In this document: positions 10,301 to 30,664 of the stretch, in pieces | How the letters are laid out: each line of letters opens with the position of its first letter | Position numbering within the stretch: position 1 is the first letter of the stretch | From: Gammaproteobacteria bacterium | GTDB taxonomy: Bacteria > Pseudomonadota > Gammaproteobacteria > Methylococcales > Methylomonadaceae | Reading direction: 5' to 3' | Length of the DNA stretch: 32,678 bases | NCBI GenBank assembly: GCA_024276805.1 | Contig: JAJRWJ010000240.1 | Span: 1-32,678 of the forward strand | Made by a program: the position numbers and the translations under genes | Notes under the pieces: generated by a model | Databases searched by the model: none | Told to the model about the DNA's origin: nothing | The model's input: the letters and a program-made list of their open reading frames with translations, nothing else

Positions 10301-10313
10301 GAACAAGACGCAT

Positions 10314-10342
10314 AGGATACGCGGTATCGATTATGCGCTCAA
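10314..10342 (-). promoter_or_regulatory. Possible sigma70-type promoter for tRNA-Ser
   Basis: The minus strand reads TTGAGC (10342-10337), a 17-nt spacer, then TATCCT (10319-10314). This is about 13 nt upstream of the mature tRNA 5' end. It is a motif match only. Confidence 0.3.
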
Positions 10343-10509
10343 TACATACCACACTACCCAACCATTACTTCAACTTTCAGGCCAGAAATAGACGTAAGAA
10401 GTCAACCCATGTCTCGGTATCGGCATTTTTACAGCCTTTCAGCTATCAGTAGCGATGACAGCGGGAGAAACCAGCAGAAAAACCACGACGCACAACATCA
10501 GACGATAAT

Positions 10510-11046
10510 TCAGCCTCTCTCGCCCGGCATTTTGCGCCGTGCGCGAAAAAACTGCCGCAGCATGTCACTGCATTCCTCGGCCAACACCCCGCCCTGTACG
10601 CTCACTTGATGATTCAACGGCGTATTCTCTAACAAGGAAAAGACACTGCCAGCAGCACCAGCGCGCGGGTCTGTGGCGGCGTACACCACGCGGGCAACCC
10701 GCGCGTGAACAATGGCGCCAGCGCACATCACACAGGGCTCCAGGGTCACGTACAAGGTGGTGCCGGTGAGACGATAATTCGCAGCGGTCAGCCCCGCCGC
10801 ACGCAGGGCCATGATCTCGGCATGCGCAGTCGGGTCGTGAGCGCCGATGGGCTGATTCCAGCCTTCGGCCAGCAAGCTGTTGTCGCGCACGATAACGGCG
10901 CCCACAGGCACCTCGCCCGAGGTCTCGGCGCGTTGCGCCAGCGCCATGGCGTGGCGCATCCACTGCTGGTCGCGCGGTGTACCGTTGGTGAAATCCTGGC
11001 TAATCGAAGTTGTCCGGCTTTCCAAAACCGCCCGCCCTATTCCCAC
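10510..11046 (-). CDS. tadA: tRNA-specific adenosine deaminase TadA
   Basis: WMRHAMALAQRAETSGEVPVGAVIV...GWNQPIGAHDPTAHAEIMALRAAG...YRLTGTTLYVTLEPCVMCAGAIVHARVARVVYAATDPRAGAAGS carries the HAE and PCxxC deaminase motifs and is colinear with E. coli TadA. The true start is uncertain: the track start is a GTG at 11046, and TTG 11025 or ATG 10959 are alternatives. Confidence 0.9.
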   Translation of the reverse strand: MGIGRAVLESRTTSISQDFTNGTPRDQQWMRHAMALAQRAETSGEVPVGAVIVRDNSLLAEGWNQPIGAHDPTAHAEIMALRAAGLTAANYRLTGTTLYVTLEPCVMCAGAIVHARVARVVYAATDPRAGAAGSVFSLLENTPLNHQVSVQGGVLAEECSDMLRQFFRARRKMPGERG

Positions 11047-11170
11047 TCGATTGTAAATAAGCCATTATTACACTTCATTTTCAATGACTTAGCTGTTGGG
11101 GGTAGTGAAAATACGATGACAAATACCATGTTCAGAAATTCCTGCCAATCGCGACTGAAAACGATTGCCC
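11042..11170 (+). repeat. Island repeat copy R1 (lacks the left flank; abuts or overlaps the tadA 5' end)
   Basis: CCCACTCGATTGTAAATAAGCCATTATTACACTTCATTTTCAATGACTTAGCTGTTGGGGGTAGTGAAAATACGATGACAAATACCATGTTCAGAAATT, followed by CCTGCCAATCGCGACTGAAAACGATTGCC. It aligns by eye with R2, R4 and R5. Confidence 0.8.
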
Positions 11171-11277
11171 CAATAAAGGTTTCACGGTCTTCCCCGGTTT
11201 ACAGGCGCCTTACGCCCCATTTGGGGTTCTCCTGATTTTCCGCCCCTACTTTCCGTAATTTACGATATCATACCCGC

Positions 11278-11382
11278 ATGAATTCGCCATCCCTGTATCC
11301 CCGCTGGATAAAACCACGAATTGACGAAGCCTTACTGGATACGCCAGTGATTCTGCTTGCAGGGTCACGCCCGGTGGGGTAA
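11278..11382 (+). pseudogene. 34-codon N-terminal fragment of an AAA (AAA_14/DUF4143-type) ATPase gene
   Basis: ATG 11278 gives MNSPSLYPRWIKPRIDEALLDTPVILLAGSRPVG*. It resembles the N-terminus of DUF4143-family ATPases (R.....l..aL.d.pvvlL.G.RQ.GK[ST]TL). It stops inside the Walker A, directly abutting the GTG start of the next gene. Confidence 0.4.
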
Positions 11383-13635
11383 GTGGCTACAGGCATTTCC
11401 AAGGCTAAATTGAGCGCGCCGCGGCTGAGCAGAACCTACGCGCGCATACGCTTGTTCGAGCAGCTCGACGCTGTCCGGCATGCGCCATTGATCTGGCTCT
11501 CGGCCCCGGCCGGCGCGGGAAAGACTTCTCTGGTTGCCAGTTGGCTCAAAGACAGGGGGGATAGCGCCCAGTGGTGCCGGATAGACGAGGGTGACGCCGA
11601 TGTCGCCACGTTTTTCTACTACCTCGGCCAATTGGACATAGAGGCAGGCAGCCCTCTACCCCTGCTGACCCCGGAGTATCTGGCCAGCCTGCCGATTTTT
11701 ACACGCAACTTTTTCCGCGAGCTGTTTTCGCGAATCAAGCCCCCCGGCGTGCTGGTGCTGGACAATTTTCAGGACGCAGAGGTAGCGGAAACCCTGTACG
11801 AGCTGCTGGCGGTGGGCTGTAGCGAGATTCCCGCCGGAATCAATGTCATCGTCATTAGCCGTGAAGATCCGCCACCGGCCTTCGCCCGCTTCCGGGCCAA
11901 CGGTGCCCTCGCTCCGATAGGCTGGGATCAGCTCCGGCTGACTATGCAAGAGAGCCGCGCCATCGCCCACCTCTACGTCGAGCTCCCGCTGGGTGACACC
12001 GACGCCCAGGCCCTGCACGCGAAAATTGATGGCTGGGTGGCGGGGCTGGTGTTGCTGGCAGGGCAAGACGCCCCTTCCCTCTCGGCGAAAACAGGGCGAC
12101 CGGAACTACAATCGCAAGCTATGTCCGACTACTTCGCGACCGAGATTTTTCAGCAGGTTGATCAAGACACCCAACACTTGCTCACCCGCACGGCCCTGCT
12201 GCCCCGGGTCAGCCCTGCGGCAGCACAGACCCTTAGCAGACTTGATGACGCAGCCACCCTCCTGGAGGCCGTGTATCGCAGGAATTTCTTCACCGTGCAG
12301 CACCCCGGCCCGGTGTACGAATATCACCCCTTGTTTCGCGCCTTTCTGCGCCAACGCCTCATCCAGAGTCTGCTTGTTGAAGAATTGACCAACCTCTACC
12401 GACAGGCAGCACAGTGGCTGGTGGATGACGATCAAGTACCCGAGGCCGTCGACTTATTATTAGAGGCCGAAGCCTGGGAAGTCGCTGCGCCCCTGATCCT
12501 GCAACAGGCTCAGGGCCTGCTCGGCCAAGGGCGCGGGGCAGCTCTGGTGCGCTGGCTGGACATGCTACCTGATGCGCTCGTGCAAGAAGCCCCCTGGCTG
12601 TTGTTCTGGCGCGGCATGGGCGAGATGGCAACGAACCCGGCTGCGGCCCGCCGTCACCTGGAGCGGACCTATGTCCGGTTCAAGGCCGATGGTGAGTTCA
12701 ACGGCCAGATATTGAGCTGGTCGACGTTGGTAGACAGTTTCCTCTTCGAGTGGAGTTGTCTGGTAGGGCTGGATCACTGGATTTCCGAGGCAAGAGAGCT
12801 TGCCGCCACCAGGCTAGACGCCCTGCCCCAAAATACGCAAGACCACTTCACCTGCGGCTTGTTCATTGCCTTGATGTTTCGTCAACCTCAACATCCGGAT
12901 CTGAGCCAGTGGGCGAACCGCACCCAACAAATCGTGGTTCACGGCCATGACCCCAGGCTACGCGCCAAGGTGGCCCCCTTTGTGGTGATGTACTACACCA
13001 CGGCCAATCGTAAGCAGGCGGGGGTGGTGCTCGACGCCCTGCGAAGCATAATGAATCGGCCGGATCAGCCACCCATGGTGGAGATCGCCTGGGCGGCCAC
13101 GGAGGGATTTTTCCAGACAGCCGGCGGCGACGTTTGTGAGGCGGCAGAACGTCTGCATGCTGGTCTGTCGGTGAGCGCGGCGGCAGGAATTCGGACCTGG
13201 GAGACGCTTTTGCTCAGCCAGGCCGCCATTGCCTCCCTGGTGCGGGGCGGTTCGGCGGAGGATTATTTGCAGCAGATGCGTCACTTGTTGGTTGACGAGC
13301 GTTACCTGGACTGGAGTGTGTATCACTACATCATGGCCTGGCAGGCACTGTCAGAGAATCATGCAGAGATAGCCCTGGCACAGGCACAGTTGAGTGAGAG
13401 CTATCGTTCCATGTCTGGCACGGTACGGTTTGAAATTTACCTGCAGGTAATGCAGGCCCAGTGCCTGTTTGCCCGTGGTGATCAGGCGCAAGCGCTGGCG
13501 CTTATCGAGACCTCTGTGCTGCACGTTGGTTGGCAGAAGGGCACCCGGTCTGCCTTGTCGGCATGGCCAAGGCCTGGTTCGAATACCAACAGGGGAAGGA
13601 ATCGGCCTGTCTGGCGACCCTGCACAGGACGCTGA
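11383..13635 (+). CDS. MalT/LuxR-type STAND NTPase plus helical (TPR-like) region; probably the N-terminal part of a frameshifted regulator
   Basis: KLSAPRLSRTYARIRLFEQLDAVRHAPLIWLSAPAGAGKTSLVASWL...WCRIDEGDADVATFFYYL is the MalT-like N-terminus with a Walker A. VLVLDNFQD is the Walker B. The last roughly 37 aa (VGWQKGTRSALSAWPRPGSNTNRGRNRPVWRPCTGR) look out of frame. Confidence 0.75.
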   Translation: MATGISKAKLSAPRLSRTYARIRLFEQLDAVRHAPLIWLSAPAGAGKTSLVASWLKDRGDSAQWCRIDEGDADVATFFYYLGQLDIEAGSPLPLLTPEYLASLPIFTRNFFRELFSRIKPPGVLVLDNFQDAEVAETLYELLAVGCSEIPAGINVIVISREDPPPAFARFRANGALAPIGWDQLRLTMQESRAIAHLYVELPLGDTDAQALHAKIDGWVAGLVLLAGQDAPSLSAKTGRPELQSQAMSDYFATEIFQQVDQDTQHLLTRTALLPRVSPAAAQTLSRLDDAATLLEAVYRRNFFTVQHPGPVYEYHPLFRAFLRQRLIQSLLVEELTNLYRQAAQWLVDDDQVPEAVDLLLEAEAWEVAAPLILQQAQGLLGQGRGAALVRWLDMLPDALVQEAPWLLFWRGMGEMATNPAAARRHLERTYVRFKADGEFNGQILSWSTLVDSFLFEWSCLVGLDHWISEARELAATRLDALPQNTQDHFTCGLFIALMFRQPQHPDLSQWANRTQQIVVHGHDPRLRAKVAPFVVMYYTTANRKQAGVVLDALRSIMNRPDQPPMVEIAWAATEGFFQTAGGDVCEAAERLHAGLSVSAAAGIRTWETLLLSQAAIASLVRGGSAEDYLQQMRHLLVDERYLDWSVYHYIMAWQALSENHAEIALAQAQLSESYRSMSGTVRFEIYLQVMQAQCLFARGDQAQALALIETSVLHVGWQKGTRSALSAWPRPGSNTNRGRNRPVWRPCTGR

Positions 13636-14513
13636 CCACCACCACCGCCGGTACCGGTGATTATACCTGCAGCCTGTTGTCGCAACAGCAGGCGACTCTA
13701 TACAGCCTTGCGCTGGCGCATGGCATCGAAACCAGGTATGTGCGGCGCATGATCCGCAAACTGTGCCTGACACTGGCTGAGCCGCAGCAGGCCCCCGAAA
13801 ACTGGCCCTTCCCGATCAGAGTTTATACCCTGGGGCGCTTCAGCCTGTTGATTGATGGCCAGAGCCAGATAGCGGGTAAGCGAGCCCAGGCGAAACCGCT
13901 GGAACTCCTGAAGCTGCTGATTGCGCTGGGCGGACGTGACATCAGTGATGCCAGGCTGGAAGGGGCCCTGTGGCCGGACGCCGAGGGCGACGCCGCCCAC
14001 CGTGCCCTGATCACCAATCTGCAACGCCTGCGCAAGCTGCTGGGCCTGGCGGGGGCCATTGACTATACCGATGGCCGTCTGAGCCTGAACGCGCGTCATT
14101 GCTGGGTGGATATGTGGGCCTTTGAGCGTACCGTGGCGCAAGCGGAGCAACAGGAACGGGCGCAGGAAATCTACAAAGGCGCCTTTCTCGCCGAAGACAA
14201 CGATCAGCCCTGGCTGTTGACCGCCCGGGAGCGCTTGCAACGCAAGTTCCTTCGGAGCCTCAGCGACCTTGGCGCACAGTACAGCGCTGACAGCAACTGG
14301 GACAAGGCCATCGACCTCTACCAGCACGGCCTCGATATCGACGACACGGCCGAGGTGTTCTACCAGGGCCTGATGCAGGCCTACGCCCGGCAAGGCCAGC
14401 GGGCCGAAATGGAAAAAACCTACCAGCAGTGCCGGCGGGTCCTGTCCGCACGGTTCGACACCAGCCCCTCGCCACAAACCATAACCCTGTATCAACAGCT
14501 GTGTGAAAAATAA
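13530..14513 (+). CDS. SARP-type winged-helix DNA-binding plus BTAD domain; probably the C-terminal part of the same regulator
   Basis: IRVYTLGRFSLLIDGQSQIAGKRAQAKPLELLKLLIALGGRDISDARLEGALWPD...LRKLLG is an OmpR/SARP wHTH. VDMWAFERTV...YKGAFLAEDNDQPWLLTARERLQRKFLRSLSDLG...AIDLYQHGLDIDDTAEVFYQGLMQAYARQGQRAEMEKTYQQCRRVL is BTAD. The ORF overlaps the previous one by 106 nt in a different frame. Confidence 0.75.
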   Translation: MAEGHPVCLVGMAKAWFEYQQGKESACLATLHRTLTTTTAGTGDYTCSLLSQQQATLYSLALAHGIETRYVRRMIRKLCLTLAEPQQAPENWPFPIRVYTLGRFSLLIDGQSQIAGKRAQAKPLELLKLLIALGGRDISDARLEGALWPDAEGDAAHRALITNLQRLRKLLGLAGAIDYTDGRLSLNARHCWVDMWAFERTVAQAEQQERAQEIYKGAFLAEDNDQPWLLTARERLQRKFLRSLSDLGAQYSADSNWDKAIDLYQHGLDIDDTAEVFYQGLMQAYARQGQRAEMEKTYQQCRRVLSARFDTSPSPQTITLYQQLCEK

Positions 14514-14539
14514 TCGGCCAACGGTGGGTGGGCACCCTG

Positions 14540-16423
14540 TCATACTGTTGCAAGGCTTCCCCTTCTTGCCCATTCAAGCGGGTTCGAACCGGTGTTGAAT
14601 TCCATTGTATCGTTGACACCATCAAAGTCGGTGTCTTCCGCAATGGGGTTTGTCCCTTCGGCAAATTCACGCCAGTTGGGTGTGCCGTCCCCATCCGGGT
14701 CTTCTGAGGCGTTTGGTGTTTGTGGGTCAAATCCGTAGTTGATTTCCCATCTATCCGGCAGGCCATCAAAATCCGAGTCTAGGGCGACGTTGACGGTAAC
14801 AGTCGTTGAGCTCTGCAGGCCGTTACTGTTTGTTGCCAAGAAGGTGATGCGGTGTTGCCCTTCAGCCAAACCGGAGATTGTTGCCCGTGTGCCATGGCCG
14901 ACTGTTTTGCCATCAAGCTGCCACTCCAGTTGCGATCTGGAAAGCGGACCATCCAACCGATCAAATGCCTGTCCCATCAGCGCAATGTCTTGCCATGAGG
15001 TAAGCGTGGCGCCATCAGCGGGATTCAGCAACAGTAGTTGCGGTGGCTTGGCGGCGATTTCTGTTTGGGTGCTCTGGCGTGTATCAGTTACAGTTGTCTC
15101 CGGCCCCGCTTTATTCGCAGTAGCCGTAGCAGCGCCATTCAACCAGGTTCGAATGCCATTCCAGGTATAGAGGGAAGTCCATATGAGCCCCCTGTCTGTT
15201 GGATAAGACATATCCATATTGTTATTCCCTCCGTACGACATATAGTCGTGCGTGTGTCCGCCGCTGCCATCAACGGGTGGTATTGCTTGCATGGCGAAAA
15301 TATCGAAACCATAGGCGTTTGCTTCAATCGCTCCGTGCGGGTCAGGATATAACGGGTCGATAGGCGGAAGTTCACCATCGCTACTCCCGGCATGGGCCAG
15401 GGCAGGCCCTGCATGTCCCGATTCTTGCGCAAGCAGTGTAGTACAGGACGTAAGCCAATAATCCGGAGCGGTACCAACCCCCGCCAACCCCCGGCACCCC
15501 ATTCTGTCGCCCACAAAATCGATCGAGTCCGGGTGATTGATGGCTGGCACCATGGTATAGCCACCGGCTACCAGCCCAAGCTCTGCACTCCTGGCGCGCA
15601 TCTGGTCTTCCACCGAGACCGGTACGTTCGCGTCTGTGCCGGTATAGGGATTGATACAGCTTTGGCCGTTCGGAACGCAGGTGTCCACATAATAGGTGCC
15701 GAAGAGCTGCATCTCCGGAATGGGCCATGTCTTGTAAACGTAACTGATCACATTGGCTACTTCACTGCTGCTTGGCTGAAGCCTGGTCACCGTGCCATCA
15801 CTTGCAACACTGGCCCACCGCAAGATGTAGGGAATACACGTCGCCTGATTTGCCACCGTCGTAAAGCGTGTGCCGGACAATGTGACGCTGTTGTTATCGC
15901 TACAACCGTCACACTCTGCGACATATTGATCCCCGCTCGGGTTTGCCTCGGCCACCAAACGAATCTCGCCGCCAACTGTCCAGGAGTATGGCAAGACGAA
16001 GTTCCAGGAGCGTGCGGCTTCGTCTCTTAGATAAGACAGATTTGTATATGACGAGTGAATAAAGAGCGTGGTGTTTTGAGGCGTGAGGGGTGAACCCGGC
16101 AATTCAGTACCATCGCCTGCAAAGCCCCGCAGGCGGGCCGAAAGCGAGTATGCAGGTGTGCCGGTATAGATACGCATCCAGGGATAAACCCGAACGATGG
16201 TGCGACGCTCGGCCACATGGAAGCCGTTGCTTCGAAACGAGGCGTCTTCTGCAAGGTAACTGAACGCATCGGGTGGAACACGGCTGGGGATATCCCCACG
16301 AATGCCTTGCGTGACTTCCATGGCCTGAATCTGCACATCAAATCCGTCACTGGGGCTGTCCACGCCATTATCGTTGCCACATCCGGCCAAGCCCATGACA
16401 ACAAACAGGATAAATATCCTCAT
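14540..16423 (-). CDS. Lipoprotein with a metzincin-like (degenerate) region, an Ig-like segment and C-terminal thrombospondin-type-3 calcium-binding repeats
   Basis: MRIFILFVVMGLAGCGN has a lipobox (LAGC), and GGAG lies 9 nt upstream of the ATG. QESGHAGPALAH and HTHDYMSYG resemble, but do not match, HExxHxxGxxH and the D.MSY of pappalysin/M43-like peptidases. The C-terminal DSDFDGLPDRWE...DPDGDGTPNWREF...DTDFDGVNDTMEF are DxDxDG repeats. Confidence 0.75.
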   Translation of the reverse strand: MRIFILFVVMGLAGCGNDNGVDSPSDGFDVQIQAMEVTQGIRGDIPSRVPPDAFSYLAEDASFRSNGFHVAERRTIVRVYPWMRIYTGTPAYSLSARLRGFAGDGTELPGSPLTPQNTTLFIHSSYTNLSYLRDEAARSWNFVLPYSWTVGGEIRLVAEANPSGDQYVAECDGCSDNNSVTLSGTRFTTVANQATCIPYILRWASVASDGTVTRLQPSSSEVANVISYVYKTWPIPEMQLFGTYYVDTCVPNGQSCINPYTGTDANVPVSVEDQMRARSAELGLVAGGYTMVPAINHPDSIDFVGDRMGCRGLAGVGTAPDYWLTSCTTLLAQESGHAGPALAHAGSSDGELPPIDPLYPDPHGAIEANAYGFDIFAMQAIPPVDGSGGHTHDYMSYGGNNNMDMSYPTDRGLIWTSLYTWNGIRTWLNGAATATANKAGPETTVTDTRQSTQTEIAAKPPQLLLLNPADGATLTSWQDIALMGQAFDRLDGPLSRSQLEWQLDGKTVGHGTRATISGLAEGQHRITFLATNSNGLQSSTTVTVNVALDSDFDGLPDRWEINYGFDPQTPNASEDPDGDGTPNWREFAEGTNPIAEDTDFDGVNDTMEFNTGSNPLEWARRGSLATV

Positions 16424-16436
16424 TGGGTTGATCTCC

Positions 16437-17693
16437 TTATTTTGAAATTATCACGCGATTCCCGCTGGTCAGGTCTATTGCCACCACCACGTCCAGATCA
16501 GCATCAACCACTAAGGCGCGGCCGTTGGCGCTGTCCAGCGTAATGCCAAGCAGGTAGTTGAGTGCGTTCACCGCGTCTGGAGTTGTGGCATCGGAGAGAA
16601 TCGTGCGCGAGCCGGTGCTCAGATCAACGGCTATTACGGCGTCTAACGTAGCGTCCACCACCAGTGCTCGGCCATTGGCACTGTCTAGCGCAATGGTTCT
16701 TGGATAGTCGAACGGGTTCGAGGTGTTGGGGATTGTTGGACCGGAGAGAATGGTGCGCTCTCCTGTGGTCAGGTCCATCGCTACTATGGCATCCAAGCCA
16801 TCATCGGCAATCAGTGCCCGGCCATTGGCTGAATCCACCACGATACCTTCCGGAAAGCTGAATGGGTTCGCCGCACTGGGCGTTGTTGCATCGGAGATAA
16901 TTGTACGCATCCCGGTGCTCAGGTTGACCGCCACCACGGCGTCTAAATTGAGATCAACAACCAGTGCGCGGTTATTGGCGGTGTCCAGCGCGATAGCCAC
17001 TGGATTGACGAACGGATTGACGGCGTCCGGGGTGGTGGCATTGGAGAGTATGGTTCGTGCGCCAGTGCTTAGGTTGACCGCCACGATGGTGTCCTGAGGG
17101 CTATCAACCACCAATGCTCGGTCATTGTTGGTGTCTATTGCGATGGCACTGGCTCCCCCGAATGGGTTTGTTGTGTCCGGGGTGGTGGCATCGGAGAGCG
17201 TGGTGCGCTCTCCATTGCCTAAGTCCACCGCGATGACAGCGTCTAAATCGGAATCAATCACTAACGCCCGCCCACGTGGCGCATCCAGCGCGATGGCGGC
17301 AGGAATGTTAAGTGGGTTCATCCTATTCGGAACTGTCGTATCAGAAAGCAAGGTGCGTGCTCCGGTGGTCAGGTCCATCGTCAGCACGGCGTCGCTACTA
17401 TCAATCACCAGTGCCCGCCCATTGGCAGCGTCCAGAGCGATGGCTAACGGGAGGTTAATCGGATCCGTCGTGTCCGGGGTAGTGGCATCGGAGATAATTG
17501 TGCGTGCCCCGCTAGCCAGATCGACCGCTATCACGGCGGAGAAAAAATAATCAACCACCAGTGCGCGCCCGTTGGCGGTGTCAATCGTGATGCCCCTTGG
17601 AAGCCAGAATGGGTTCGACGTGTCGGGGGTTGTTGCATCGGAAAGCATCGTGCGCGCGCCAGAACTCAGATCCACTGCTAGCACGGCTCTCAA
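16437..17693 (-). CDS. Tandem-repeat (NHL/YncE-like beta-propeller-type) protein, 3' portion of a disrupted gene
   Basis: It has nine units of about 46 aa with consensus P.aIALD.ANGRALVVD..LDAVIAVDL.TGARTILSDATTPD..NPF. The track start is a TTG generated downstream of the frameshift. The stop is 13 nt upstream of the lipoprotein ATG, so the two form an operon. Confidence 0.7.
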   Translation of the reverse strand: MRAVLAVDLSSGARTMLSDATTPDTSNPFWLPRGITIDTANGRALVVDYFFSAVIAVDLASGARTIISDATTPDTTDPINLPLAIALDAANGRALVIDSSDAVLTMDLTTGARTLLSDTTVPNRMNPLNIPAAIALDAPRGRALVIDSDLDAVIAVDLGNGERTTLSDATTPDTTNPFGGASAIAIDTNNDRALVVDSPQDTIVAVNLSTGARTILSNATTPDAVNPFVNPVAIALDTANNRALVVDLNLDAVVAVNLSTGMRTIISDATTPSAANPFSFPEGIVVDSANGRALIADDGLDAIVAMDLTTGERTILSGPTIPNTSNPFDYPRTIALDSANGRALVVDATLDAVIAVDLSTGSRTILSDATTPDAVNALNYLLGITLDSANGRALVVDADLDVVVAIDLTSGNRVIISK

Positions 17694-18049
17694 ATCACCA
17701 TCGGTGACCAGTGCCCGGTCATTGGTTGCATTGCATCCAGCGTGATGGCACTCGGATTATTGAAAGGGGTTGTCCCATTCGGAATTGTCGCATTGGAGAA
17801 GATTGTGCGCGCGCCGCTGGTCAGATCCACAGCGATCACGGCATCCAGGTTGGCATCGACCACCAGCGCCCGGTTATTGGTTGCATCCAGCGCGATGGCG
17901 ATTGGGTTGATGAAGGGATTTGTCGCATCCGGGATTGTTGCGTTGGAAAGAATCGAGCGAGCACCGCTGGTCAGATTTACCGCCACCACGGCGGCCAAAT
18001 CGGAATCAATGACAAGCACCCGGTTGTTGGCAGTTGACGCATATTCCAC
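17690..18049 (-). CDS. Same tandem-repeat protein, 5' portion (two more repeat units), ending in a frameshift tail
   Basis: A GTG start gives MEYASTANNRVLVIDSDLAAVVAVNLTSGARSILSNATIPDATNPF...AITLDA, then the aberrant tail MQPMTGHWSPMVI*. There is no signal peptide and no ATG. The frame opens only 26 codons upstream, after a TAA. Confidence 0.6.
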   Translation of the reverse strand: MEYASTANNRVLVIDSDLAAVVAVNLTSGARSILSNATIPDATNPFINPIAIALDATNNRALVVDANLDAVIAVDLTSGARTIFSNATIPNGTTPFNNPSAITLDAMQPMTGHWSPMVI

Positions 18050-18192
18050 GTGGGCATGAAAAGCCTGTCCACCCCACCAGATTTTTTGCGTCAGAGCCTG
18101 ACTCAGATTCCATTAATTCGAGTCTGCCCCTATTTCCGTGCACCAATCAGCGGTGGACAGCAGCTGGACATCGCTTGTTGCAGGGGCTAAAG

Positions 18193-18218
18193 TTAATCAA
18201 CTTGATCAATTTAATCAA
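18193..18218. promoter_or_regulatory. Operator-like repeat cluster upstream of the phd/parE-like operon
   Basis: TTAATCAA (18193-18200), the palindrome TTGATCAA (18202-18209) and TTAATCAA (18211-18218) occur at 9-nt spacing. They lie immediately upstream of the SD (AAGG 18221) and ATG 18232. Confidence 0.35.
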
Positions 18219-18231
18219 ATAAGGCACAACT

Positions 18232-18495
18232 ATGATGAAAATACTCAACGCTAGTGATGCCAAACGCGAATTCGGTGAAGTCCTGATCAGGGCACAGCAT
18301 GGCCCTGTTGGCATTAACCGCAATGGCAAGCCCATTGCTGTAGTGATCTCGGCGGCAGAATATGCCCAGCTTGAGGCACTAAAAAAGGCACATCTAGAAA
18401 AGGCAATCGAGGATGGAATCTCTGACTTGCAAACCGGCAAGGTCAGCAATGGTAAAACTGTGATCGACAATTTACGCAAACGGATAAACAGCTAA
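18232..18495 (+). CDS. Phd/YefM-family type II antitoxin
   Basis: MMKILNASDAKREFGEVLIRAQHGPVGINRNGKPIAVVISAAEYAQLEAL matches the Phd/YefM N-terminal pattern (sequence a+..f.e.l......pv.i.r.gkp.aVvls.eeYe.L). The ParE-like ORF starts 3 nt downstream. Confidence 0.85.
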   Translation: MMKILNASDAKREFGEVLIRAQHGPVGINRNGKPIAVVISAAEYAQLEALKKAHLEKAIEDGISDLQTGKVSNGKTVIDNLRKRINS

Positions 18496-18498
18496 GCC

Positions 18499-18801
18499 GT
18501 GACAAAGCCCCGCCCCCGCTATCAATTCACAGAAAAATCCGAACGTGATCTTGAAGACATCATCGACTATACCGTCCAACAGTGGGGAGTTTCTCAGGCC
18601 GATACTTACCTTGATAGCCTGGAAACACGCGCTCAGCTCCTTGCTGAAAACCCCGACCTGGGGGTCAAACGGGAAGCGCTTTTCGAGGGACTACTCAGCT
18701 TTCTTTATGAAAGCCATATCCTGTACTACATGAAACGATCCGGCGGGATCACGATTGTACGAGTACTCCATCAAAACATGGATCCGATGAAGTACCTCTG
18801 A
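18499..18801 (+). CDS. parE: ParE/RelE-superfamily type II toxin
   Basis: A GTG start gives YQFTEKSERDLEDIIDYTVQQWGVSQADTYLDSLETRAQLLAENPDLGVKREALFEGLLSFLYESHILYYMKRSGGITIVRVLHQNMD, the canonical ParE pattern (A..DL..I..Y....wg..qA..Y...l......L...P..G, ...i.I.rvLH..MD). Confidence 0.85.
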   Translation: MTKPRPRYQFTEKSERDLEDIIDYTVQQWGVSQADTYLDSLETRAQLLAENPDLGVKREALFEGLLSFLYESHILYYMKRSGGITIVRVLHQNMDPMKYL

Positions 18802-18830
18802 TTTTTCAAGCCAAACACCTGCCCTCCCGG

Positions 18831-19145
18831 GCTATTTCCCTCCTGTTGCAGAGCAGTGATGATTTGAAAAATATCGGCCGCTACACAGAGCGGCAATGGG
18901 GAAAAATCCAGCGCAACACCTACCTGTAAAATCTCGAAAAACGCTTTCGCTGGCTATCTGAAAACCCTCAACTGGGTAAGCACCGCTCCGATGTTGCTGA
19001 AGGTTACTATAGTTTCCCACAGGGCGAGCACGTCGTCTTTTACCTGATTGGCCAAGAAGGAATTGATATTATTGGTGTTCCCCACAAAGAGATGGGCATC
19101 ATCTCATATTTTCTGCCTGACTTAACACTCGAAAAATGGGTGTAA
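18831..19145 (+). pseudogene. Second ParE-like toxin gene, degraded (no start codon, in-frame TAA at 18927-18929)
   Basis: The frame reads ...DDLKNIGRYTERQWGKIQRNTYL*NLEKRFRWLSENPQLGKHRSDVAEGYYSFPQGEHVVFYLIGQEGIDIIGVPHKEMGII...*. This is the ParE pattern interrupted by a stop. There is no cognate antitoxin ORF in front of it. Confidence 0.6.
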
Positions 19146-19147
19146 TA

Positions 19148-19276
19148 CCAGCCAATCCCTGCCGTTGCCAGCTCACTCCCACTCGATTGTAAACGAGCCG
19201 TAAAAAGCCAGTAATGACGCGGGTTTTAAGAGGGGCGAATGTGTCGATACCATGAAATATACCATGTTCAGAATTT
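19148..19276 (+). repeat. Island repeat copy R2 (divergent middle part)
   Basis: CCAGCCAATCCCTGCCGTTGCCAGCTCACTCCCACTCGATTGTAAACGAGCC...GATACCATGAAATATACCATGTTCAGAATTT. It starts 2 nt after the stop of the ParE pseudogene. Confidence 0.8.
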
Positions 19277-19509
19277 GGTGCTCAGTAAGTTGTATTGAGT
19301 GCGGTTAACGATATCGTAACAGACCAACGACATCGGTTTACTGACAGCCCTGGTCATCACAGCGTGCCTAATTCAAGTGTTGGTATTGCAGGGGAAAATG
19401 GACAACCCCAAGAAGCTGGAATGCTGAATTTGGCTAATTATCAATCGTATTGACAATTAGCCAAAATGAGCTACATTACCGATATCATGAACGAATCAGA
19501 GCGAACCTG

Positions 19510-20688
19510 ATGTATATCCCCCGAGAGGCTGAGGCCAGACTTCAGCGCTTCGCCAGCGGCTACCCAGTGGTCGTAGTCACCGGTCCACGCCAGTCCGGCA
19601 AATCTACGCTGGTGCGCCATGCGTTTCCTGAACACCATTACGTATCCCTTGAGGATCTCGATCAGCGGGACTTTGCCGAAAGTGACCCCCGAGGCTTTCT
19701 GAACCAGTTTACCGAAAATGCAATTCTGGATGAGGCGCAACGCTGCCCTGCCCTGTTTTCCTATCTGCAGACACGCATAGACGAGCGGCAACGGCCCGGC
19801 GAATTCATCCTGACAGGCTCACAACAGTTCGACCTGCTATCGGGCATCACACAAAGTCTGGCCGGCAGAGCGGCATTGCTTACCCTGCTTCCCATGACAT
19901 ACGGCGAATTAAAGCGCACAGGACAAATCAACCGCCATCTCGACCAAACCCTTTTTTATGGGGCGTACCCTCCCATCTTTGATCGCAGACTCGAGCCACA
20001 TCCGTGGTATGGGAATTATGTGCGCACTTACCTGGAACGCGATGTCCGGCAATTGATTAACGTGCAGGATCTTGGGACATTTCAACGGTTCCTGAAATTG
20101 TGCGCGGGTCGAACCGGACAACTCCTCAATCTTTCCTCGCTGGCCAATGACGCCGGCATTACGCACAACACGGCCAAAGCCTGGATATCTGTGCTGGAAG
20201 CGAGTTACATCGTACATCTGCTGCCACCTCACCACCAGAATTTCAACAAACGTCTGGTTAAGACACCCAAACTCTATTTTCTGGATACAGGTCTTGCGAC
20301 TTGGTTGCTCGGTATTCAGAACATGGACCAACTGGCCACCCATGTTCAACGCGGTGCATTATTCGAAACCTGGGTCATCAGCGAATTACTCAAGGCCCGC
20401 TATAATGCGGGCGAGGCCTCGAACCTTTACTTCTGGCGTGATCGATCAGGACACGAGGTAGACCTGCTGATTGATCATGGAACACACCTGTCACCACTGG
20501 AAATAAAATCCGGTCAGACCATCAACCGGGATTATTTCAAGGGATTGGATTTCTGGCGAAAACTGGCAGGTGAGACCGCCGGGAAAGCATGGCTAATTTA
20601 CGGCGGCGACACCCTGCAGACTCGCTCCGACGTCACTATCCTGCCATGGCATAAAATCGATCCCGAGCAGATTGTGATGCCTGCGTGA
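19510..20688 (+). CDS. AAA-family ATPase with DUF4143-type C-terminal domain
   Basis: MYIPREAEARLQRFASGYPVVVVTGPRQSGKSTLVRHAF contains the Walker A. ILDEAQR is the Walker B. The C-terminal ...LLNLSSLANDAGITHNTAKAWISVLEASYIVHLLPP...KLYFLDTGL...GALFETWV...YFWRDRSGHEVDLL is the AAA_14/DUF4143 layout. The track start at 19450 is an upstream TTG; I prefer ATG 19510. Confidence 0.85.
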   Translation: MYIPREAEARLQRFASGYPVVVVTGPRQSGKSTLVRHAFPEHHYVSLEDLDQRDFAESDPRGFLNQFTENAILDEAQRCPALFSYLQTRIDERQRPGEFILTGSQQFDLLSGITQSLAGRAALLTLLPMTYGELKRTGQINRHLDQTLFYGAYPPIFDRRLEPHPWYGNYVRTYLERDVRQLINVQDLGTFQRFLKLCAGRTGQLLNLSSLANDAGITHNTAKAWISVLEASYIVHLLPPHHQNFNKRLVKTPKLYFLDTGLATWLLGIQNMDQLATHVQRGALFETWVISELLKARYNAGEASNLYFWRDRSGHEVDLLIDHGTHLSPLEIKSGQTINRDYFKGLDFWRKLAGETAGKAWLIYGGDTLQTRSDVTILPWHKIDPEQIVMPA

Positions 20689-20728
20689 TTCGTAGATTCG
20701 AGGCGAATCCTTCTATAAACGTTTAATG

Positions 20729-20825
20729 CCAGTCATTACCAGCCATTGCCTGTCAATACCGGTCACTCCCACTCTATTGTAAATACCCAACAAGTCAGTC
20801 GATATATCAATAGCTTACTATTGAC
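20729..20825 (+). repeat. Island repeat copy R3 (left flank and 5' core only; the ATACCATG half is missing)
   Basis: CCAGTCATTACCAGCCATTGCCTGTCAATACCGGTCACTCCCACTCTATTGTAAATACCC...GATATATCAATAGCTTACTATTG. It lies 40 nt after the ATPase stop. Confidence 0.7.
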
Positions 20826-20953
20826 TTCGCTTTATAGTCAGCACAATTCCAATCCCTCCCCATCGCGCTTTTAATCTTCTCCTCCAGTAACCGTATAGAC
20901 ATCCGATATACAATTATGTATATTGATCATCCATACAACAGGAGACTATTGCG

Positions 20954-21232
20954 ATGGCTGAAACACAGAACCGTGCAGCACCGATTAACATCCGCGCCCG
21001 CACAACGCAGCGCAACCTGATCGATAAAGCAGCAGCGATGCTCAACAAGAATCGCTCGGACTTTATGCTGGAAGCCGCTTGCCGTGAGGCTGAGAACGTG
21101 TTGCTCGACCAACGGCTCTTTTTGGTGGACGACAAAACCTACAAGACATTCGCAACGCTCATTGATGCGCCGATCAAAGACAACCCTGCGCTGCGAAAAT
21201 TGTTACATGACAAGGCGCCATGGGAGAAATAA
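20954..21232 (+). CDS. DUF1778 (TacA-like, RHH) type II antitoxin
   Basis: INIRARTTQRNLIDKAAAMLNKNRSDFMLEAACREAENVLLDQRLFLVDDKTYKTFATLIDAP matches the DUF1778 pattern. GGAG lies 9 nt upstream. An imperfect palindrome, GATATACAATTATGTATATTGATC, lies at about 20905-20928. Confidence 0.85.
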   Translation: MAETQNRAAPINIRARTTQRNLIDKAAAMLNKNRSDFMLEAACREAENVLLDQRLFLVDDKTYKTFATLIDAPIKDNPALRKLLHDKAPWEK

Positions 21233-21714
21233 CAGCGCCGGAGCCCATTACGGAAGCTCACCTCATAGAATCGTTCTCATGCTGTGTCCCGGTACTGGAT
21301 GAATGGCTTAAACGCCATGCGCTCAAGAACGAAGTTTCCGGTGCATCCCGCACCTTCGTCGTATGCCAGGACAAGAAGGTCATTGGTTATTACGCCCTGG
21401 CCACAGGGAGTATCGAACATCGTGACGCCCCGGGAAAAATACGCCGCAATATGCCGGATCCGATTCCGGTCATGATACTCGGAAGACTGGCCATCGACCA
21501 GCAGTGGCAACAGGCGGGTCTGGGTCGGAATCTGCTGAAGGATGCGCTGTTGCGTTCACTGTCGGTATCAAAACAGACAGGCATCAGAGCATTACTTGTT
21601 CATGCACTCTCGCAAGATGCAAAACGTTTCTATACCGGTAACGGGTTTATCGAATCCCCGCTTGACTCGATGACCTTGATGGTCGCCTTGCAAGATGCAG
21701 CACATTGCCTATAG
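21220..21714 (+). CDS. GNAT-family acetyltransferase toxin (TacT/AtaT-like)
   Basis: It overlaps the DUF1778 gene by 13 nt. FSCCVPVLDEWLKRHALKNEVSGASRTFVVC...VIGYYALATGSI...PVMILGRLAIDQQWQQAGLGRNLLKDAL...GIRALLVHALSQDAKRFYTGNGF shows the GNAT Q/RxxGxG/A motif in the arrangement typical of DUF1778-linked toxins. Confidence 0.85.
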   Translation: MGEITAPEPITEAHLIESFSCCVPVLDEWLKRHALKNEVSGASRTFVVCQDKKVIGYYALATGSIEHRDAPGKIRRNMPDPIPVMILGRLAIDQQWQQAGLGRNLLKDALLRSLSVSKQTGIRALLVHALSQDAKRFYTGNGFIESPLDSMTLMVALQDAAHCL

Positions 21715-21769
21715 GAACATGCACAGGTAAACAAATCAGAGAGAATGGAGCGCGGCCCTGCGACAGGCT

Positions 21770-22756
21770 GTGATACGACTGAAGCCGGACTATTTTTCAT
21801 TACCCGAAATCGAATGTGATGCTTACCGGCTCCACCTGACGTCAGAAGATGACTTCCGAGTCCGGCAAACTCTCCTCAACGGATTGTTTGGGATTGCGGT
21901 CAACAACCCGGAAGAACTGGATGCAGCACTGGAAACGTTTGATGACAGCCAGTATCTGTTGCTGAATAGCACCCTGCTACCATTTCAAGGCATTGGTAAA
22001 GATTACTTCTTCCTGAACGAATATCTCCCCAAAGATATCACCCTGCTCGATTTCGATACGGTCGGGGATTATGCGCGTGACGATCACCGCTTTCAGGAAC
22101 AGGCGCGCAAACAGGAGGATCCAGATTACCCTCCACGCCCCTACCGGGGTGATATTCACCGCTGCTGGGCAAGGCTGGAGATTGATGGCGCTTTCCATTA
22201 TGCCGATATCAGCTCCCTGGCGGGATATCTGACCGATGTGCTGGACGAAGCAGGGCTCGAACGCATTGACGAACTCATTCCCTGCCAGTACGTCAATGGC
22301 CCGAACCATGGCAAGCGGGAAGGCAAAGGATATGTCTACGACAAACGCCTCGATGCCGGCGGATTGGAAGGCCAGTTGCAGGCACTACGAGATCGTTACT
22401 ACGCCTATATGCAGGAAAGATACGAAGCACTGCTTGATCGGTTCAATACATCCCCGACAACACGCGTATACATGCGACGTCAGATACGGGATACGGAATC
22501 ACACATGGACTTCGTTTTCTCCGACGCCACGGCACTGGAAGCCGTACGCTTCCGACACTTCGTCAGCGACTGCCGGCATATCGCTGACGATCCAGCAAAA
22601 GTTGACGCTCTCATCGAGCAGGAAAAGCGCCTCGCGCTCGATTTTCTTGCCAACACTTACCAGGACATCATGGACAACTTCGATCCCACAATCGTGAAAC
22701 TGCACCGGAAACACAAGGTCATCCTGGCGAATGAAAAGTTGAAGGATCTGCTATGA
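21770..22756 (+). CDS. Hypothetical protein (328 aa), no motif recognised
   Basis: A long ORF with plausible composition, on the same strand and in the same repeat-bounded cassette as the DUF1778/GNAT pair. It has a GTG start without a clear SD, so the start is uncertain. Confidence 0.55.
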   Translation: MIRLKPDYFSLPEIECDAYRLHLTSEDDFRVRQTLLNGLFGIAVNNPEELDAALETFDDSQYLLLNSTLLPFQGIGKDYFFLNEYLPKDITLLDFDTVGDYARDDHRFQEQARKQEDPDYPPRPYRGDIHRCWARLEIDGAFHYADISSLAGYLTDVLDEAGLERIDELIPCQYVNGPNHGKREGKGYVYDKRLDAGGLEGQLQALRDRYYAYMQERYEALLDRFNTSPTTRVYMRRQIRDTESHMDFVFSDATALEAVRFRHFVSDCRHIADDPAKVDALIEQEKRLALDFLANTYQDIMDNFDPTIVKLHRKHKVILANEKLKDLL

Positions 22757-22855
22757 CTGATCCATTACCTTGATTTCAACGCGATACTGGATTCTCGCTT
22801 GCACGGGAATGACGAAAAACAAATCAACCAGGCTTCCCCCTGGTTTACCGACAAA

Positions 22856-22994
22856 CCAGTCGTTGCCAATCAATACCTGCCGTTGCCAGGTCACTCCCAC
22901 TCGATTGTAAATAAGCCATTTTTATCCTTTAATATCAATGGCTTTGATGTTGTTGCAAATGGTAATACCATGAAAAATACCATGTCCAGAATTT
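22856..22994 (+). repeat. Island repeat copy R4 (full length)
   Basis: CCAGTCGTTGCCAATCAATACCTGCCGTTGCCAGGTCACTCCCACTCGATTGTAAATAAGCCATTTTTATCCTTTAATATCAATGGCTTTGATGTTGTTGCAAATGGTAATACCATGAAAAATACCATGTCCAGAATTT. Confidence 0.85.
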
Positions 22995-23115
22995 CTTATA
23001 AATCATCACTATCCATAACCAGCGCCTAGACAGATACCATTACTGATCAGATTTACAGTAGACCTATAAATGGACTATATTTAGTACCAATTAAATCGAT
23101 GAAGGAATACAGGCC

Positions 23116-23397
23116 ATGAAACTGAGTGAGTCGGTCAAACCCATCAGCTACCTGAAAAGCCACACCGCCGAGGCACTGCGAAGCGTCAGCGAGGGGCAAC
23201 GTACTATGGTGATCACTCAACACGGCGAAGCCCGAGCAGTGCTCCAGGATATCGTCAGTTATGAACAAACCCAGGAATCGCTGGCGTTGCTCAAGATGCT
23301 CGCCCAAAGCTCCAAAAGCGTTCAGGAAGGCCGCAGCAAGCCCCTCAAGAAAGCCTTTGCGGATGTTCGCAAGCAGATCCGGGAACTCGCTGAGTGA
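23116..23397 (+). CDS. Phd/YefM-family type II antitoxin
   Basis: SVKPISYLKSHTAEALRSVSEGQRTMVITQHGEARAVLQDIVSYEQTQESLALLKML fits the pattern. It has a 4-nt GTGA overlap with the downstream toxin ORF. Confidence 0.85.
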   Translation: MKLSESVKPISYLKSHTAEALRSVSEGQRTMVITQHGEARAVLQDIVSYEQTQESLALLKMLAQSSKSVQEGRSKPLKKAFADVRKQIRELAE

Positions 23398-23720
23398 AAC
23401 ACTATCGTGTCCGGCTTACCGAGGATGCGGAGCGGGACCTGATCGAAATCTACCGCTACATTGCTTTCCACGGCTCGGTGGAGAATGCGGATTACGTACT
23501 GGATCAACTCGAGTCCCTGTGCTCGCGGCTTACCGAACTGCCCGAGCAGGGCCACGTTCCGCCCGAGCTGGATCGAATCGGTGTAACGAACTATAGGGAA
23601 GTCAACTTCAAGCCGTATCGTGCCATCTATGAGGTGATCCGGCAGGACGTTTTCATTCATTGCATCCTCGATGGCCGCAGGGATATGCCATCGTTACTTG
23701 AGCGGCGCCTGATTCGCTAA
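23394..23720 (+). CDS. ParE/RelE-superfamily type II toxin
   Basis: A GTG start gives YRVRLTEDAERDLIEIYRYIAFHGSVENADYVLDQLESLCSRLTELPEQGHVPPEL...YREVNFKPYRAIYEVIRQDVFIHCILDGRRDM, the ParE/RelE pattern. Confidence 0.85.
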   Translation: MKHYRVRLTEDAERDLIEIYRYIAFHGSVENADYVLDQLESLCSRLTELPEQGHVPPELDRIGVTNYREVNFKPYRAIYEVIRQDVFIHCILDGRRDMPSLLERRLIR

Positions 23721-23784
23721 TACTGTCGCCGAAGAATTCAAACCCGCATTCTCATTCCCAACAAATCCTTTATATACTGTTCAT

Positions 23785-23945
23785 GCCTGCCAGTGCCAGA
23801 CAGTGCCGGCCACTCCCACTCTATTGTAAACGAGCGACTTTTATACTTTGATATCAATGGCTTAATTGTAGGGGTAAGTGATAATACCATGAAAAATACC
23901 ATGTTCAGAAATTGTTGCTAATCGCCTGCAAAAATTGCCAACAGA
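23785..23945 (+). repeat. Island repeat copy R5 (full length, with a right extension shared with R1)
   Basis: GCCTGCCAGTGCCAGACAGTGCCGGCCACTCCCACTCTATTGTAAACGAGCGACTTTTATACTTTGATATCAATGGCTTAATTGTAGGGGTAAGTGATAATACCATGAAAAATACCATGTTCAGAAATTGTTGCTAATCGCCTGCAAAAATTGCCAACAG. Confidence 0.85.
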
Positions 23946-23963
23946 ACGCTGCCACACAGCCCC

Positions 23964-24293
23964 CTAAGCCACCTTCCGGGCTTTGACTTCCAAGTATATG
24001 CCTTCCTGCTCCTGCTCCTGCAGATAACCGATCACCGCAAACAGATTACTCGCCTGGGGGTTCCCTTTTGGCCCGAACATGCGCATGAGACTCTTTCTCG
24101 ACTTGTCAAAACCCCGGGACAGTTCCTCGAACCCGATCGTCGCATTGATATAGTCGCGCAGCACCGCCTTGCCGGTATCGACGTCACCGGCAAGCAGACA
24201 TTCGACCCCCTCTTGCAGCAAGGCCTTGCGAAACGCGGGATCCCCTTGGGCACGTGCCTGAATGGTATCCTTAAAATCTTTCGTCAGAGCCAT
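23964..24293 (-). CDS. HTH-type antitoxin (antidote partner of a COG3657/HigB-RelE-like killer protein)
   Basis: MALTKDFKDTIQARAQGDPAFRKALLQEGVECLLAGDVDTGKAVLRDYINATIGFEELSRGFDKSRKSLMRMFGPKGNPQASNLFAVIGYL is a pattern I recognise from antidote proteins encoded downstream of killer genes. The remnant of such a killer gene lies immediately upstream. Confidence 0.7.
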   Translation of the reverse strand: MALTKDFKDTIQARAQGDPAFRKALLQEGVECLLAGDVDTGKAVLRDYINATIGFEELSRGFDKSRKSLMRMFGPKGNPQASNLFAVIGYLQEQEQEGIYLEVKARKVA

Positions 24294-24295
24294 CT

Positions 24296-24439
24296 TTACA
24301 CCCCTTGCCGTTTCCGGCGCTTATAGTCGCGCCAATGCCCTTTTGCGGCGGAAATATCCGCATCCTGACGCTTCTTGGTGCCACCCGCGAGCAATATCAT
24401 CAACCGATCCCCGTCCTTGCCGAAGTAGATCCAATGTAT
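24296..24439 (-). pseudogene. 5'-truncated killer (HigB/RelE-like, COG3657-type) toxin remnant
   Basis: The minus-strand frame between TGA (24442-24440) and TAA (24298-24296) reads [47 protein letters not shown]. This is the conserved C-terminal half (YR.YF....g..i.LL.GGdK..Q..DI..Ak) with no N-terminal half. The space upstream is occupied by the 3' end of the NERD-helicase gene. Confidence 0.6.
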
Positions 24440-24465
24440 TCAGGAAACCGTACCCACAAGCACCA

Positions 24466-26028: not shown

Positions 26029-26030
26029 GG

Positions 26031-27644: not shown

Positions 27645-27647
27645 AAC

Positions 27648-28835: not shown

Positions 28836-28837
28836 AT

Positions 28838-30661: not shown

Positions 30662-30664
30662 AGC

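Follow-up and report, generated by a model that had tools for sequence, protein, structure and literature searches.

The five repeats that punctuate a genomic island in an uncultured gammaproteobacterium (Methylococcales, Methylomonadaceae; assembly GCA_024276805.1) are very probably the attachment (att) sites of elements of the GIsul2 family, whose P4-type tyrosine integrase directs them to the 3' end of guaA and whose tandem accretion has built up the island. The stretch analyzed, called the window below, comprises the first 32,678 nucleotides (nt) of contig JAJRWJ010000240.1, and the repeats, R1 to R5, span its positions from 11 to 24 kb. An earlier note on this DNA had listed tandem accretion scars among several explanations; that option proved essentially correct, with the target corrected to the guaA 3' end. 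Computed here were the sequence matches among sites and the way they are built, along with guaA-tadA synteny and the occurrence of shared units in different genomes; integrase-dependent movement comes from published experiments on GIsul2 (PMC9376610).

Motif counts bore out the report of five copies, all on the + strand, and alignment and a repeat finder placed them within a few bases of the coordinates first given. The core, TCACTCCCACTCKATTGTAAA, was found at 11037 (with three mismatches), 19173, 20763, 22891, and 23810 (with one mismatch), and its expectation by chance was 0.00 (100 shuffles). The shorter TCCCACTC, which is the reverse complement of GAGTGGGA, is present in five of the five copies. 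The right block, ATACCATGAAAAATACCATGTTCAGAA, also with a chance expectation of 0.00, is located at 11111, 19247, 22965, and 23884; thus, it is shared by R1, R2, R4, and R5 but is absent from R3. A profile of the core plus the right arm, built from 75 nonidentical related sites of other genomes, matched the window at the five repeats only, with E values of 2e-22, 7e-22, 5e-6, 2e-27, and 7e-28 for R1 to R5, in order. The R3 match covers just the first 61 positions. Over the 116 nt of core and right arm, R1, R2, R4, and R5 are 70% to 78% identical to one another, and pairs that include R3 are 61% to 69% identical. The remaining ~20 kb of the window contained no copies by motif and profile scans.

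The copies differ in their arms, and two parts of the original description hold for some of them only. The TGCC-rich left flank is present in R2 to R5, but in R1 the left side is chromosomal DNA that ends in the native guaA end, CTATT (stop TAG, Glu GAA); from the TCCCACTC core rightward R1 consists of an element's right arm, in which the ATACGATG/ATACCATG pair is degenerate. The variable middle containing GATATCAATGGCTT does not apply to R2, whose right arm is of a different type, "AAAAGCCAGT...", that has the ATACCATG pair and also occurs in other genomes (L008, L014, and L118; L numbers denote the loci compared). The right arm of R3 is only about 40 nt long, is truncated about 60 nt along the common model, and lacks the ATACCATG pair. 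R4 carries a AAGCCATT...AATGGCTT inverted repeat in addition to the ATACCATG pair, and the right arm of R5 contains a perfect ATACCATGAAAAATACCATG.

On the minus strand the core reads TTT ACA ATC GAG TGG GAG TGA, which is F-T-I-E-W-E-stop, and T-I-E-W-E-stop is the conserved C terminus of GMP synthase (GuaA). Translation of R1 on that strand gives L-F-T-I-E-W-E-stop, with GAA TAG replacing GAG TGA, and direct reading found TIEWE-stop on the minus strand of R2 to R5 as well. In related loci, full-length guaA genes finish with ...KPPATIEWE; 10 loci show such a gene joined to the same core. By this reading, the "invariant core" is a copy of the guaA 3' end.

The closest homologue of the window's TadA (91% identity) is on a hydrothermal-vent metagenome contig, L121. 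This contig is collinear with window positions 531 to 11059, mostly at 82% to 88% nt identity with one block at 71%, and the homology stops at 11059, inside the R1 core. The L121 junction, ...CCGCCCGCC CTATTCCCACTCGATTGTAAA plus the left flank, is identical to that of R1. Past the junction are a different right arm, one ~1-kb ParE-like/HTH unit, a TGCC-type left arm, the core, and guaA (...PPATIEWE-stop). Because L121 has guaA directly after its single unit, the target would be the guaA 3' end, with tadA merely the native follower of guaA. Two more loci have the complete order tadA-array-guaA, both without an integrase: L002, a Competibacterales metagenome-assembled genome in which the tRNA-Ser gene is present as well, has one unit between tadA and guaA, and L005 has two or three. 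This synteny indicates that guaA and tadA are native neighbors in the lineage and that the array, at least 21.6 kb long here, was inserted between them; guaA itself is expected farther right, outside the window. R1 would then be the distal chromosome/element hybrid site, and R2 to R5 would be element-to-element junctions. The earlier note had placed both the target of insertion and the boundary between chromosome and island next to tadA. The boundary stands, since the collinearity with L121 ends at R1, but the tadA-proximal target gives way to the guaA 3' end. The strain comparison that the note proposed also came out in favor of the repeats as unit borders: homology boundaries with other genomes coincide with them, the L121 break falling on R1.

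The insertion site of GIsul2 is the guaA 3' end (PMC9376610, Zhang et al. 2022, which cites earlier work by Nigro & Hall 2011 and Harmer et al. 2017). Its attL, attLR, and attR sites share the crossover core 5'-GAGTGGGA-3', and at these sites its P4-type tyrosine integrase excises and inserts GIsul2 itself as well as CR2-sul2, a unit without an integrase (PMC9376610). An exact scan with the 20-mer core, one genome per species, yielded more than 119 loci across the Gamma-, Beta-, and Alphaproteobacteria. Many of these have two cores exactly 3,292 bp apart that enclose sul2 (271 amino acids [aa]) and the ISCR2 transposase gene (497 aa). The Escherichia coli sul2 record annotates both genes, and a pseudogene for an "Arm DNA-binding domain" adjoins the site; these two-core loci are the sul2 end of the genomic island GIsul2. 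Over the core and right arm, R4 is the copy closest to GIsul2 attR (83% identity), followed by R5 (79%), with R1 at 71%, and the TGCC left arm matches attLR. The similarity extends beyond the sites: window positions 23811 to 24101 are ~79% identical to the GIsul2 attR-sul2 spacer, and positions 23780 to 24110 have matches in 1,753 of 5,426 complete E. coli genomes. The once-proposed CR2 terIS, GGGAGTGACGGGCACTGGC, begins in the middle of attLR (PMC9376610); its reverse complement is made up of the TGCC-rich flank and core found in the window. Thus, the suggestion that the repeat is an att-like site was right, but the capture system is not an unrecognized one, because the core is the published core of GIsul2/CR2-sul2 and the arms are 79% to 83% identical to attR.

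We compared the anatomy of 86 nonidentical sites with full flanks. The right-arm pair ATRCCATN is located at +72/73 and +84/85 in about 76 of them. TGCC(A/T)G repeats with a 10-bp spacing peak at -37, -27, and -17 (13 to 17 sites each). The left arm is TGCC-type at 29 sites, including R2 to R5; AT-rich, with a second ATACCAT pair at -89/-77, at 25; and unique DNA at 32, including R1-like distal hybrids and sites leading to an integrase gene. The AT-rich arm (GATTATATTATCAATTGGATT...TTCAATGNGTTANAAATTCCGGT, with its own ATACCATGAAAAATACCAT pair ~80 to 90 nt from the core) was seen in L004, L005, L038, L046, L090, L092, L098, and others, and arms of both types coexist in the same arrays. The two classes may correspond to two integrase subfamilies or to two arm architectures. 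In four loci (L001, L055, L119, and L007), an integrase gene begins ~300 bp to the left of the core, and its product has Arm-DNA-bind_3, Phage_int_M, and Phage_integrase domains; the "Arm DNA-binding domain" pseudogene of the E. coli sul2 locus is in the equivalent place. The GIsul2-type arm upstream of int has further ATACCATG-like motifs in both orientations. We predict that protein binds the ATRCCATG repeats, and possibly the TGCC repeats, as arm-type sites.

With the profile of core plus right arm, 48 of 119 loci had two or more sites, and these were always on one strand. Spacings between sites range from about 0.7 to 7.6 kb; many are 0.7 to 1.6 kb, and 17 are the CR2-sul2 spacing. In ten loci where guaA is in view, the sites are tied to it. 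The earlier note had asked whether copies are scattered irrespective of their surroundings; their linkage to guaA and constant orientation favor a recombination site. Its statement that the window has no integrase was confirmed by tblastn with a P4-type integrase (best E = 0.64). This absence would count against an autonomous element but not against an att site, as CR2-sul2 also lacks an integrase.

Several of the window's units recur in the guaA arrays of other genomes at 77% to 86% identity. The recurring units, which are the DUF4143 unit, both Phd/ParE units, the ParE pseudogene, and the start of Unit 5, are att bounded, and their neighbors are shared in some genomes and different in others. 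Unit 2 is 80% to 81% identical in nt to att-flanked units in six loci (L110, L038, L095, L101, L012, and L108). Unit 4 has a counterpart in L068, where the stretch corresponding to 22964 to 23727 is 86% identical in nt and is the sole unit separating guaA from an att site. The start of Unit 5 (23811 to 24435) is ~81% to 86% identical to unit starts in nine other loci. Within Unit 1, the Phd/ParE unit (18139 to 18807) recurs in L092 and L075, and the ParE pseudogene recurs in five loci; these segments are separate att-bounded units in L092, L075, L090, L049, L012, L003, and L026, and the internal att sites of Unit 1 appear to have been lost. In L095 the shared unit is 80% identical to that of the window versus 69% for tadA, a gap that fits horizontal exchange. 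Units 2, 3, and 4 have att sites on both sides and contain only ATPase or toxin-antitoxin genes plus, in Unit 3, a 328-aa open reading frame (ORF) without a family. A Pfam census of the 136 ORFs of att-bounded units other than CR2-sul2 was led by DUF4143/AAA_14 ATPases (7), Fic/DUF4172 (7), ParE (6), HTH_3 (5), LysR (4), HigB (3), ParD (3), and AbiEii (2); no integrase family was among the 25 most frequent.

The mechanism that we propose is as follows. Each unit would carry three parts. The core, ~20 bp long, would duplicate the final codons and stop of guaA (overlap GAGTGGGA), whereby insertion leaves guaA intact; the right arm would contain two direct repeats of ATRCCATG at distances of ~72 and 84 nt from the core; and the left arm would be short and of the TGCC(A/T)G kind. 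A circular unit with an attP-like site would recombine either at the guaA end or at whichever att site is already resident, and successive insertions would push guaA away from tadA. Each unit would keep the right arm on its left border and the left arm on its right border, and the homology boundaries with other genomes show exactly this pattern. R2 to R5 would be attP-like element/element junctions, and the guaA-proximal site would lie beyond the right end of the window. The units would be cis-mobilizable elements (CIMEs), like CR2-sul2, and would move only with an integrase of the family supplied in trans, either from the guaA-proximal end of the array or by an incoming element. CIMEs have kept their att sites, and their integration and transfer genes were lost or never present; new elements enter the resident att sites, which gives tandem arrays (PMC5704250). 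By analogy with GIsul2, we infer that an integrase of its type made the sites in the window, and they are possibly still active.

Several observations weigh against this interpretation. R3 lacks the ATACCATG pair, and the pair in R1 is degenerate; thus, some of the att sites may be scars that no longer function. Unit 1 is a mosaic without internal att sites, and so deletions or other rearrangements also shaped the island. Both guaA and the integrase would be outside the window, and the adjacency of guaA is taken from the synteny of relatives. Recombination at the window's sites is deduced from their sequence and from GIsul2, and the binding role of the arm repeats is likewise deduced; the GIsul2 paper defines 19-bp att sites only (PMC9376610).

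The alternative that survives best is that the repeats originated as att sites and have since become inert scars, with the array changing by homologous recombination and deletion only. The window has no integrase, and arrays without one are common; in addition, R3 is truncated, R1 is degenerate, and the internal sites of Unit 1 are lost. However, R2, R4, and R5 retain the full anatomy of the experimentally active attLR and attR, units are shared at higher nt identity than the flanking tadA (as in L095), and one unit can have different neighbors in different genomes. We consider inert scars less likely than not, yet a serious candidate as far as current activity is concerned; this alternative leaves the identity of the repeats as att sites unchanged.

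It is far less probable that the repeats are terIS ends of ISCR2-like (IS91-family) rolling-circle transposons that accumulated by repeated one-ended transposition. The TGCC arm plus core does coincide with the proposed CR2 terIS, and ISCR2 adjoins such a site in many loci. But no Y2 transposase (Y2_Tnp) was found among the long ORFs of the window that were scanned, and Y2 transposases account for only 2 of the 136 ORFs in att-bounded units outside CR2-sul2. Insertion is always at the guaA end with the last codons restored, the movement of CR2-sul2 depends on the integrase (PMC9376610), and TGCC arms occur at 29 nonidentical sites, mostly without ISCR. The variable left flanks, which adjoin an identical arm on the sul2 side, had also been considered as IS91/ISCR oriIS or terIS sequences. 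This was dropped because the flanks are whatever follows guaA in each host; the core encodes the GuaA C terminus.

Slightly less credible still is a dispersed repeat (a repetitive extragenic palindrome or a miniature inverted-repeat transposable element), or a module that acts as a small RNA, promoter, or terminator, clustered here by chance. The copies are intergenic and ~110 to 140 bp long, and R4 has the short inverted repeat AAGCCATT...AATGGCTT. Against a dispersed repeat, the window copies are all in the 11- to 24-kb region on one strand, and copies are co-oriented in the 48 multicopy loci and guaA linked in ten. As for an RNA, Rfam searches at gathering and permissive thresholds gave only tRNA-Ser and chance-level matches. 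The mobile promoter or terminator module raised in the earlier note found no backing either: within 10900 to 11450, the only stretch scanned, no promoter-like site was seen, and the sole terminator-like match was outside the repeat and at chance level. A conserved small protein encoded through the right arm (..HGIFHGI..FTIEWE) was rejected, as the reading frame is not conserved between sites.

The least probable explanation, practically to be discounted, is an integron-like array of attC-type sites that fold as single strands and are moved by an integron integrase: small, mostly toxin-antitoxin units with one repeat each in one orientation do resemble one, but the core is the coding end of guaA, R1 is a guaA/element hybrid and not attI, there are no R''/L''-L'/R' inverted repeats, eight single-strand DNA folds (both strands of R1, R2, R4, and R5) had z scores of -1.6 to +2.5 versus shuffles with no long hairpin (folding no better than shuffles, as befits the earlier note's denial of attC sites), no IntI or other integrase was found in the window by Pfam-type scans and tblastn, and the integrases elsewhere are P4-type with an arm-binding domain.

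Table 1. Coordinates, strands, and predicted roles of the features of the window
Feature	Position	Strand	Predicted role or content	Basis or remarks
tadA	10510-11046	-	tRNA adenosine deaminase, TadA-type	Pfam; 91% identical to P0001
R1	11037..11151	+	distal hybrid att site, attR-type	motif counts, profile, translation, L121 comparison
Unit 1	11152..19147	mixed	composite	Pfam, translation, comparison with other loci
DUF4143 remnant	11278-11379	+	ATPase N-terminal remnant, 34 codons	MNSPSLYPRWIKPRIDEALLDTPVILLAGSRPVG; 76% identical to intact L098 gene
Regulator	11383-14513	+	MalT-like AAA_16 regulator and BTAD ORF	Pfam
Repeat proteins	14540-18049	-	NHL/TSP3 repeat proteins	Pfam
Phd/ParE	18232-18801		toxin-antitoxin, in Unit 1	Pfam
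ParE pseudogene	18816-19145		in Unit 1	in-frame stop (translation)
R2	19148..19284	+	element-to-element junction att site	core 19173-19193; short TGCC-type left arm
Unit 2	19285..20726	+	DUF4143/AAA_14 ATPase, gene 19450-20688	PADLOC candidate defense family PDC-S01
R3	20727..20822	+	truncated junction att site	core 20763-20783; TGCC-type left arm
Unit 3	20823..22855	+	TacA antitoxin and GNAT (TacT-like) toxin (20954-21714), 328-aa ORF	
R4	22856..23001	+	junction att site	core 22891-22911; TGCC-type left arm
Unit 4	23002..23782	+	Phd/ParE toxin-antitoxin, genes 23116-23720	Pfam
R5	23783..23924	+	junction att site	core 23810-23830; TGCC-type left arm
Unit 5	23925..32678	-	runs off the window	family searches
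109-aa ORF	23964-24293	-	conserved, in Unit 5	no Pfam, NCBIfam, or PADLOC family
Defense cluster	24466-32678	-	NERD-helicase (PADLOC RTasNERD-Hel-like), 537-aa ORF, UvrD/GajB-like helicase, DISARM DrmB, DrmA	in Unit 5

Pfam and translation confirmed the gene calls previously made beside the repeats (ParE pseudogene, DUF4143 ATPase, TacAT-like pair plus 328-aa ORF, and Phd/ParE). The DUF4143 remnant in Unit 1 adjoins the start of the MalT-like ORF, and because this remnant is just right of R1, the first unit was once a DUF4143 unit whose body has since been replaced. The 750-aa AAA_16/MalT-like ORF and the 327-aa BTAD/TPR ORF overlap by ~100 nt in different frames and may be one frameshifted regulator gene. 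Similarly, the coding region 16437 to 18049 (minus strand) is split into 418-aa and 119-aa ORFs with a 4-nt overlap, which may be one frameshifted NHL gene; ten tandem 150-nt (50-aa) copies, 61% to 74% identical to the reference copy, occupy 16529 to 18030 within the NHL-repeat genes. A near-perfect palindrome at 19423 to 19471 (23-nt arms, 87% complementary, with a 3-nt spacer) overlaps the start of the DUF4143 ORF of Unit 2 and is probably an operator; it gave a spurious microRNA match in the permissive Rfam search.

In Unit 5, DrmB scored 331.7 bits with its NCBIfam model (cutoff, 240), and DrmA is cut by the window end; an integrase gene is possibly located to the right of the unit, beyond the window. 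The 109-aa, 328-aa, and 537-aa ORFs had no family match even at E = 5, although by eye the 109-aa ORF resembles HI1420-type antidote proteins. The ~290-bp attR-sul2 spacer of GIsul2/CR2-sul2 consists of a truncated remnant of the 109-aa gene (..RMLGSKGNPQASNLFAVI..; L120, 20140 to 20330). From this comparison, sul2 seems to have replaced the 5' part of a 109-aa-gene unit.

By analogy with the gene called in L121, tadA likely starts at the TTG at 11025, which leaves about 11 nt between it and the ancestral guaA stop. In its native position tadA was probably cotranscribed with guaA, which is now at least 21 kb away; today tadA faces a divergent gene and the right arm of the island. tadA is an essential gene of E. 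coli. The stretch scanned around R1 (10900 to 11450) gave no consensus promoter, and thus the right arm as an outward promoter for tadA was unsupported. In four loci of another lineage (L123 to L126; TadA 90% identical), tadA follows an alpha-amylase gene, not guaA, and on its other side is a P4-type integrase/AlpA/Toprim/DUF3631 element, probably at a tRNA gene; the tRNA-Ser gene of the window (10211 to 10300) has no such element.

Beyond the window, we tentatively suggest, at somewhat less than even confidence, that the guaA end is a widespread integron-like cassette platform in environmental Gammaproteobacteria, where P4-type integrases acting in trans capture, stack, and exchange small units. 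The units would be 0.7 to 2 kb long (toxin-antitoxin pairs, Fic, DUF4143/PDC-S01 ATPases, AbiE), each with a ~110- to 140-bp double-strand att site and one of two alternative left arms, with TGCC repeats or AT rich with a second ATACCAT pair. We suggest this because 48 of 119 loci are multisite and co-oriented, because units are shared with differing neighbors, because the census is led by toxin-antitoxin and defense families, and because the GIsul2 attR-sul2 spacer is a remnant of a Unit 5-type 109-aa gene. Alternatively, the small units may not move on their own but may be decay products. If the suggestion is true, the clinically important CR2-sul2 is one such cassette that escaped into pathogens, and the data suggest that the natural reservoir and origin of CR2-sul2, including its supposed terIS, are in such arrays.

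A seemingly mysterious repeat has thus received a precise assignment, to att sites used by the family of integrases behind the spread of sul2 and other resistance genes, and one machinery would stack toxin-antitoxin and phage defense genes (DISARM, PDC-S01 ATPase) at guaA in uncultured environmental bacteria. Such arrays can be searched for by the signature of a TIEWE-stop core, an ATRCCATG pair about 72 to 84 nt off, and 10-bp-spaced TGCC repeats. The att sites of the GIsul2 family, CIMEs, and accretion were known; new are the host, the cargo, and the long integrase-less array, and the commonness of such arrays in uncultured Gammaproteobacteria appears to be new as well. In a limited search of the open-access literature, we found tandem CR2-sul2 units and guaA-targeting integrative mobilizable elements but no description of toxin-antitoxin/defense arrays at guaA.

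The nearest known system is GIsul2/CR2-sul2 itself, with which the window shares the core GAGTGGGA inside ...ATCGAGTGGGAGTGA, the restoration of the guaA end upon insertion, integrase-less units with att sites at both ends, and the tandem arrangement. The cargo differs (sul2/ISCR2/ars there, toxin-antitoxin and defense genes here), as does the host, which here is an uncultured environmental gammaproteobacterium in which five or more units follow one another. The window shows no integrase gene and no alpA, rep, or trb backbone, and its sites are ~110- to 140-bp structures with conserved arm repeats, whereas the published sites are 19 bp. The Pseudomonadota integrative mobilizable elements (PIMEs; bioRxiv 10.64898/2026.01.12.698999) also have attB next to guaA and int and alpA genes related to those of GIsul2. 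However, they are defined by core genes that include int and alpA, which the window lacks, and the PIME text does not mention tandem arrays (the word "tandem" occurs 0 times). Like CIMEs (PMC5704250), the units are att bounded, have no integration or transfer genes, and are stacked at one target gene; CIMEs have been described mainly for Streptococcus ICESt1-type elements, whereas the units here are 0.7 to 2 kb, numerous, and recurrent in many genomes. The likeness to sedentary integron arrays, which also consist of co-oriented small toxin-antitoxin-rich units with one recombination site each, is functional only: those arrays have folded attC sites, IntI, and attI with a Pc promoter, whereas here the sites are double-strand att sites with arm repeats, the integrase would be P4-type, and the platform would be the end of a housekeeping gene.

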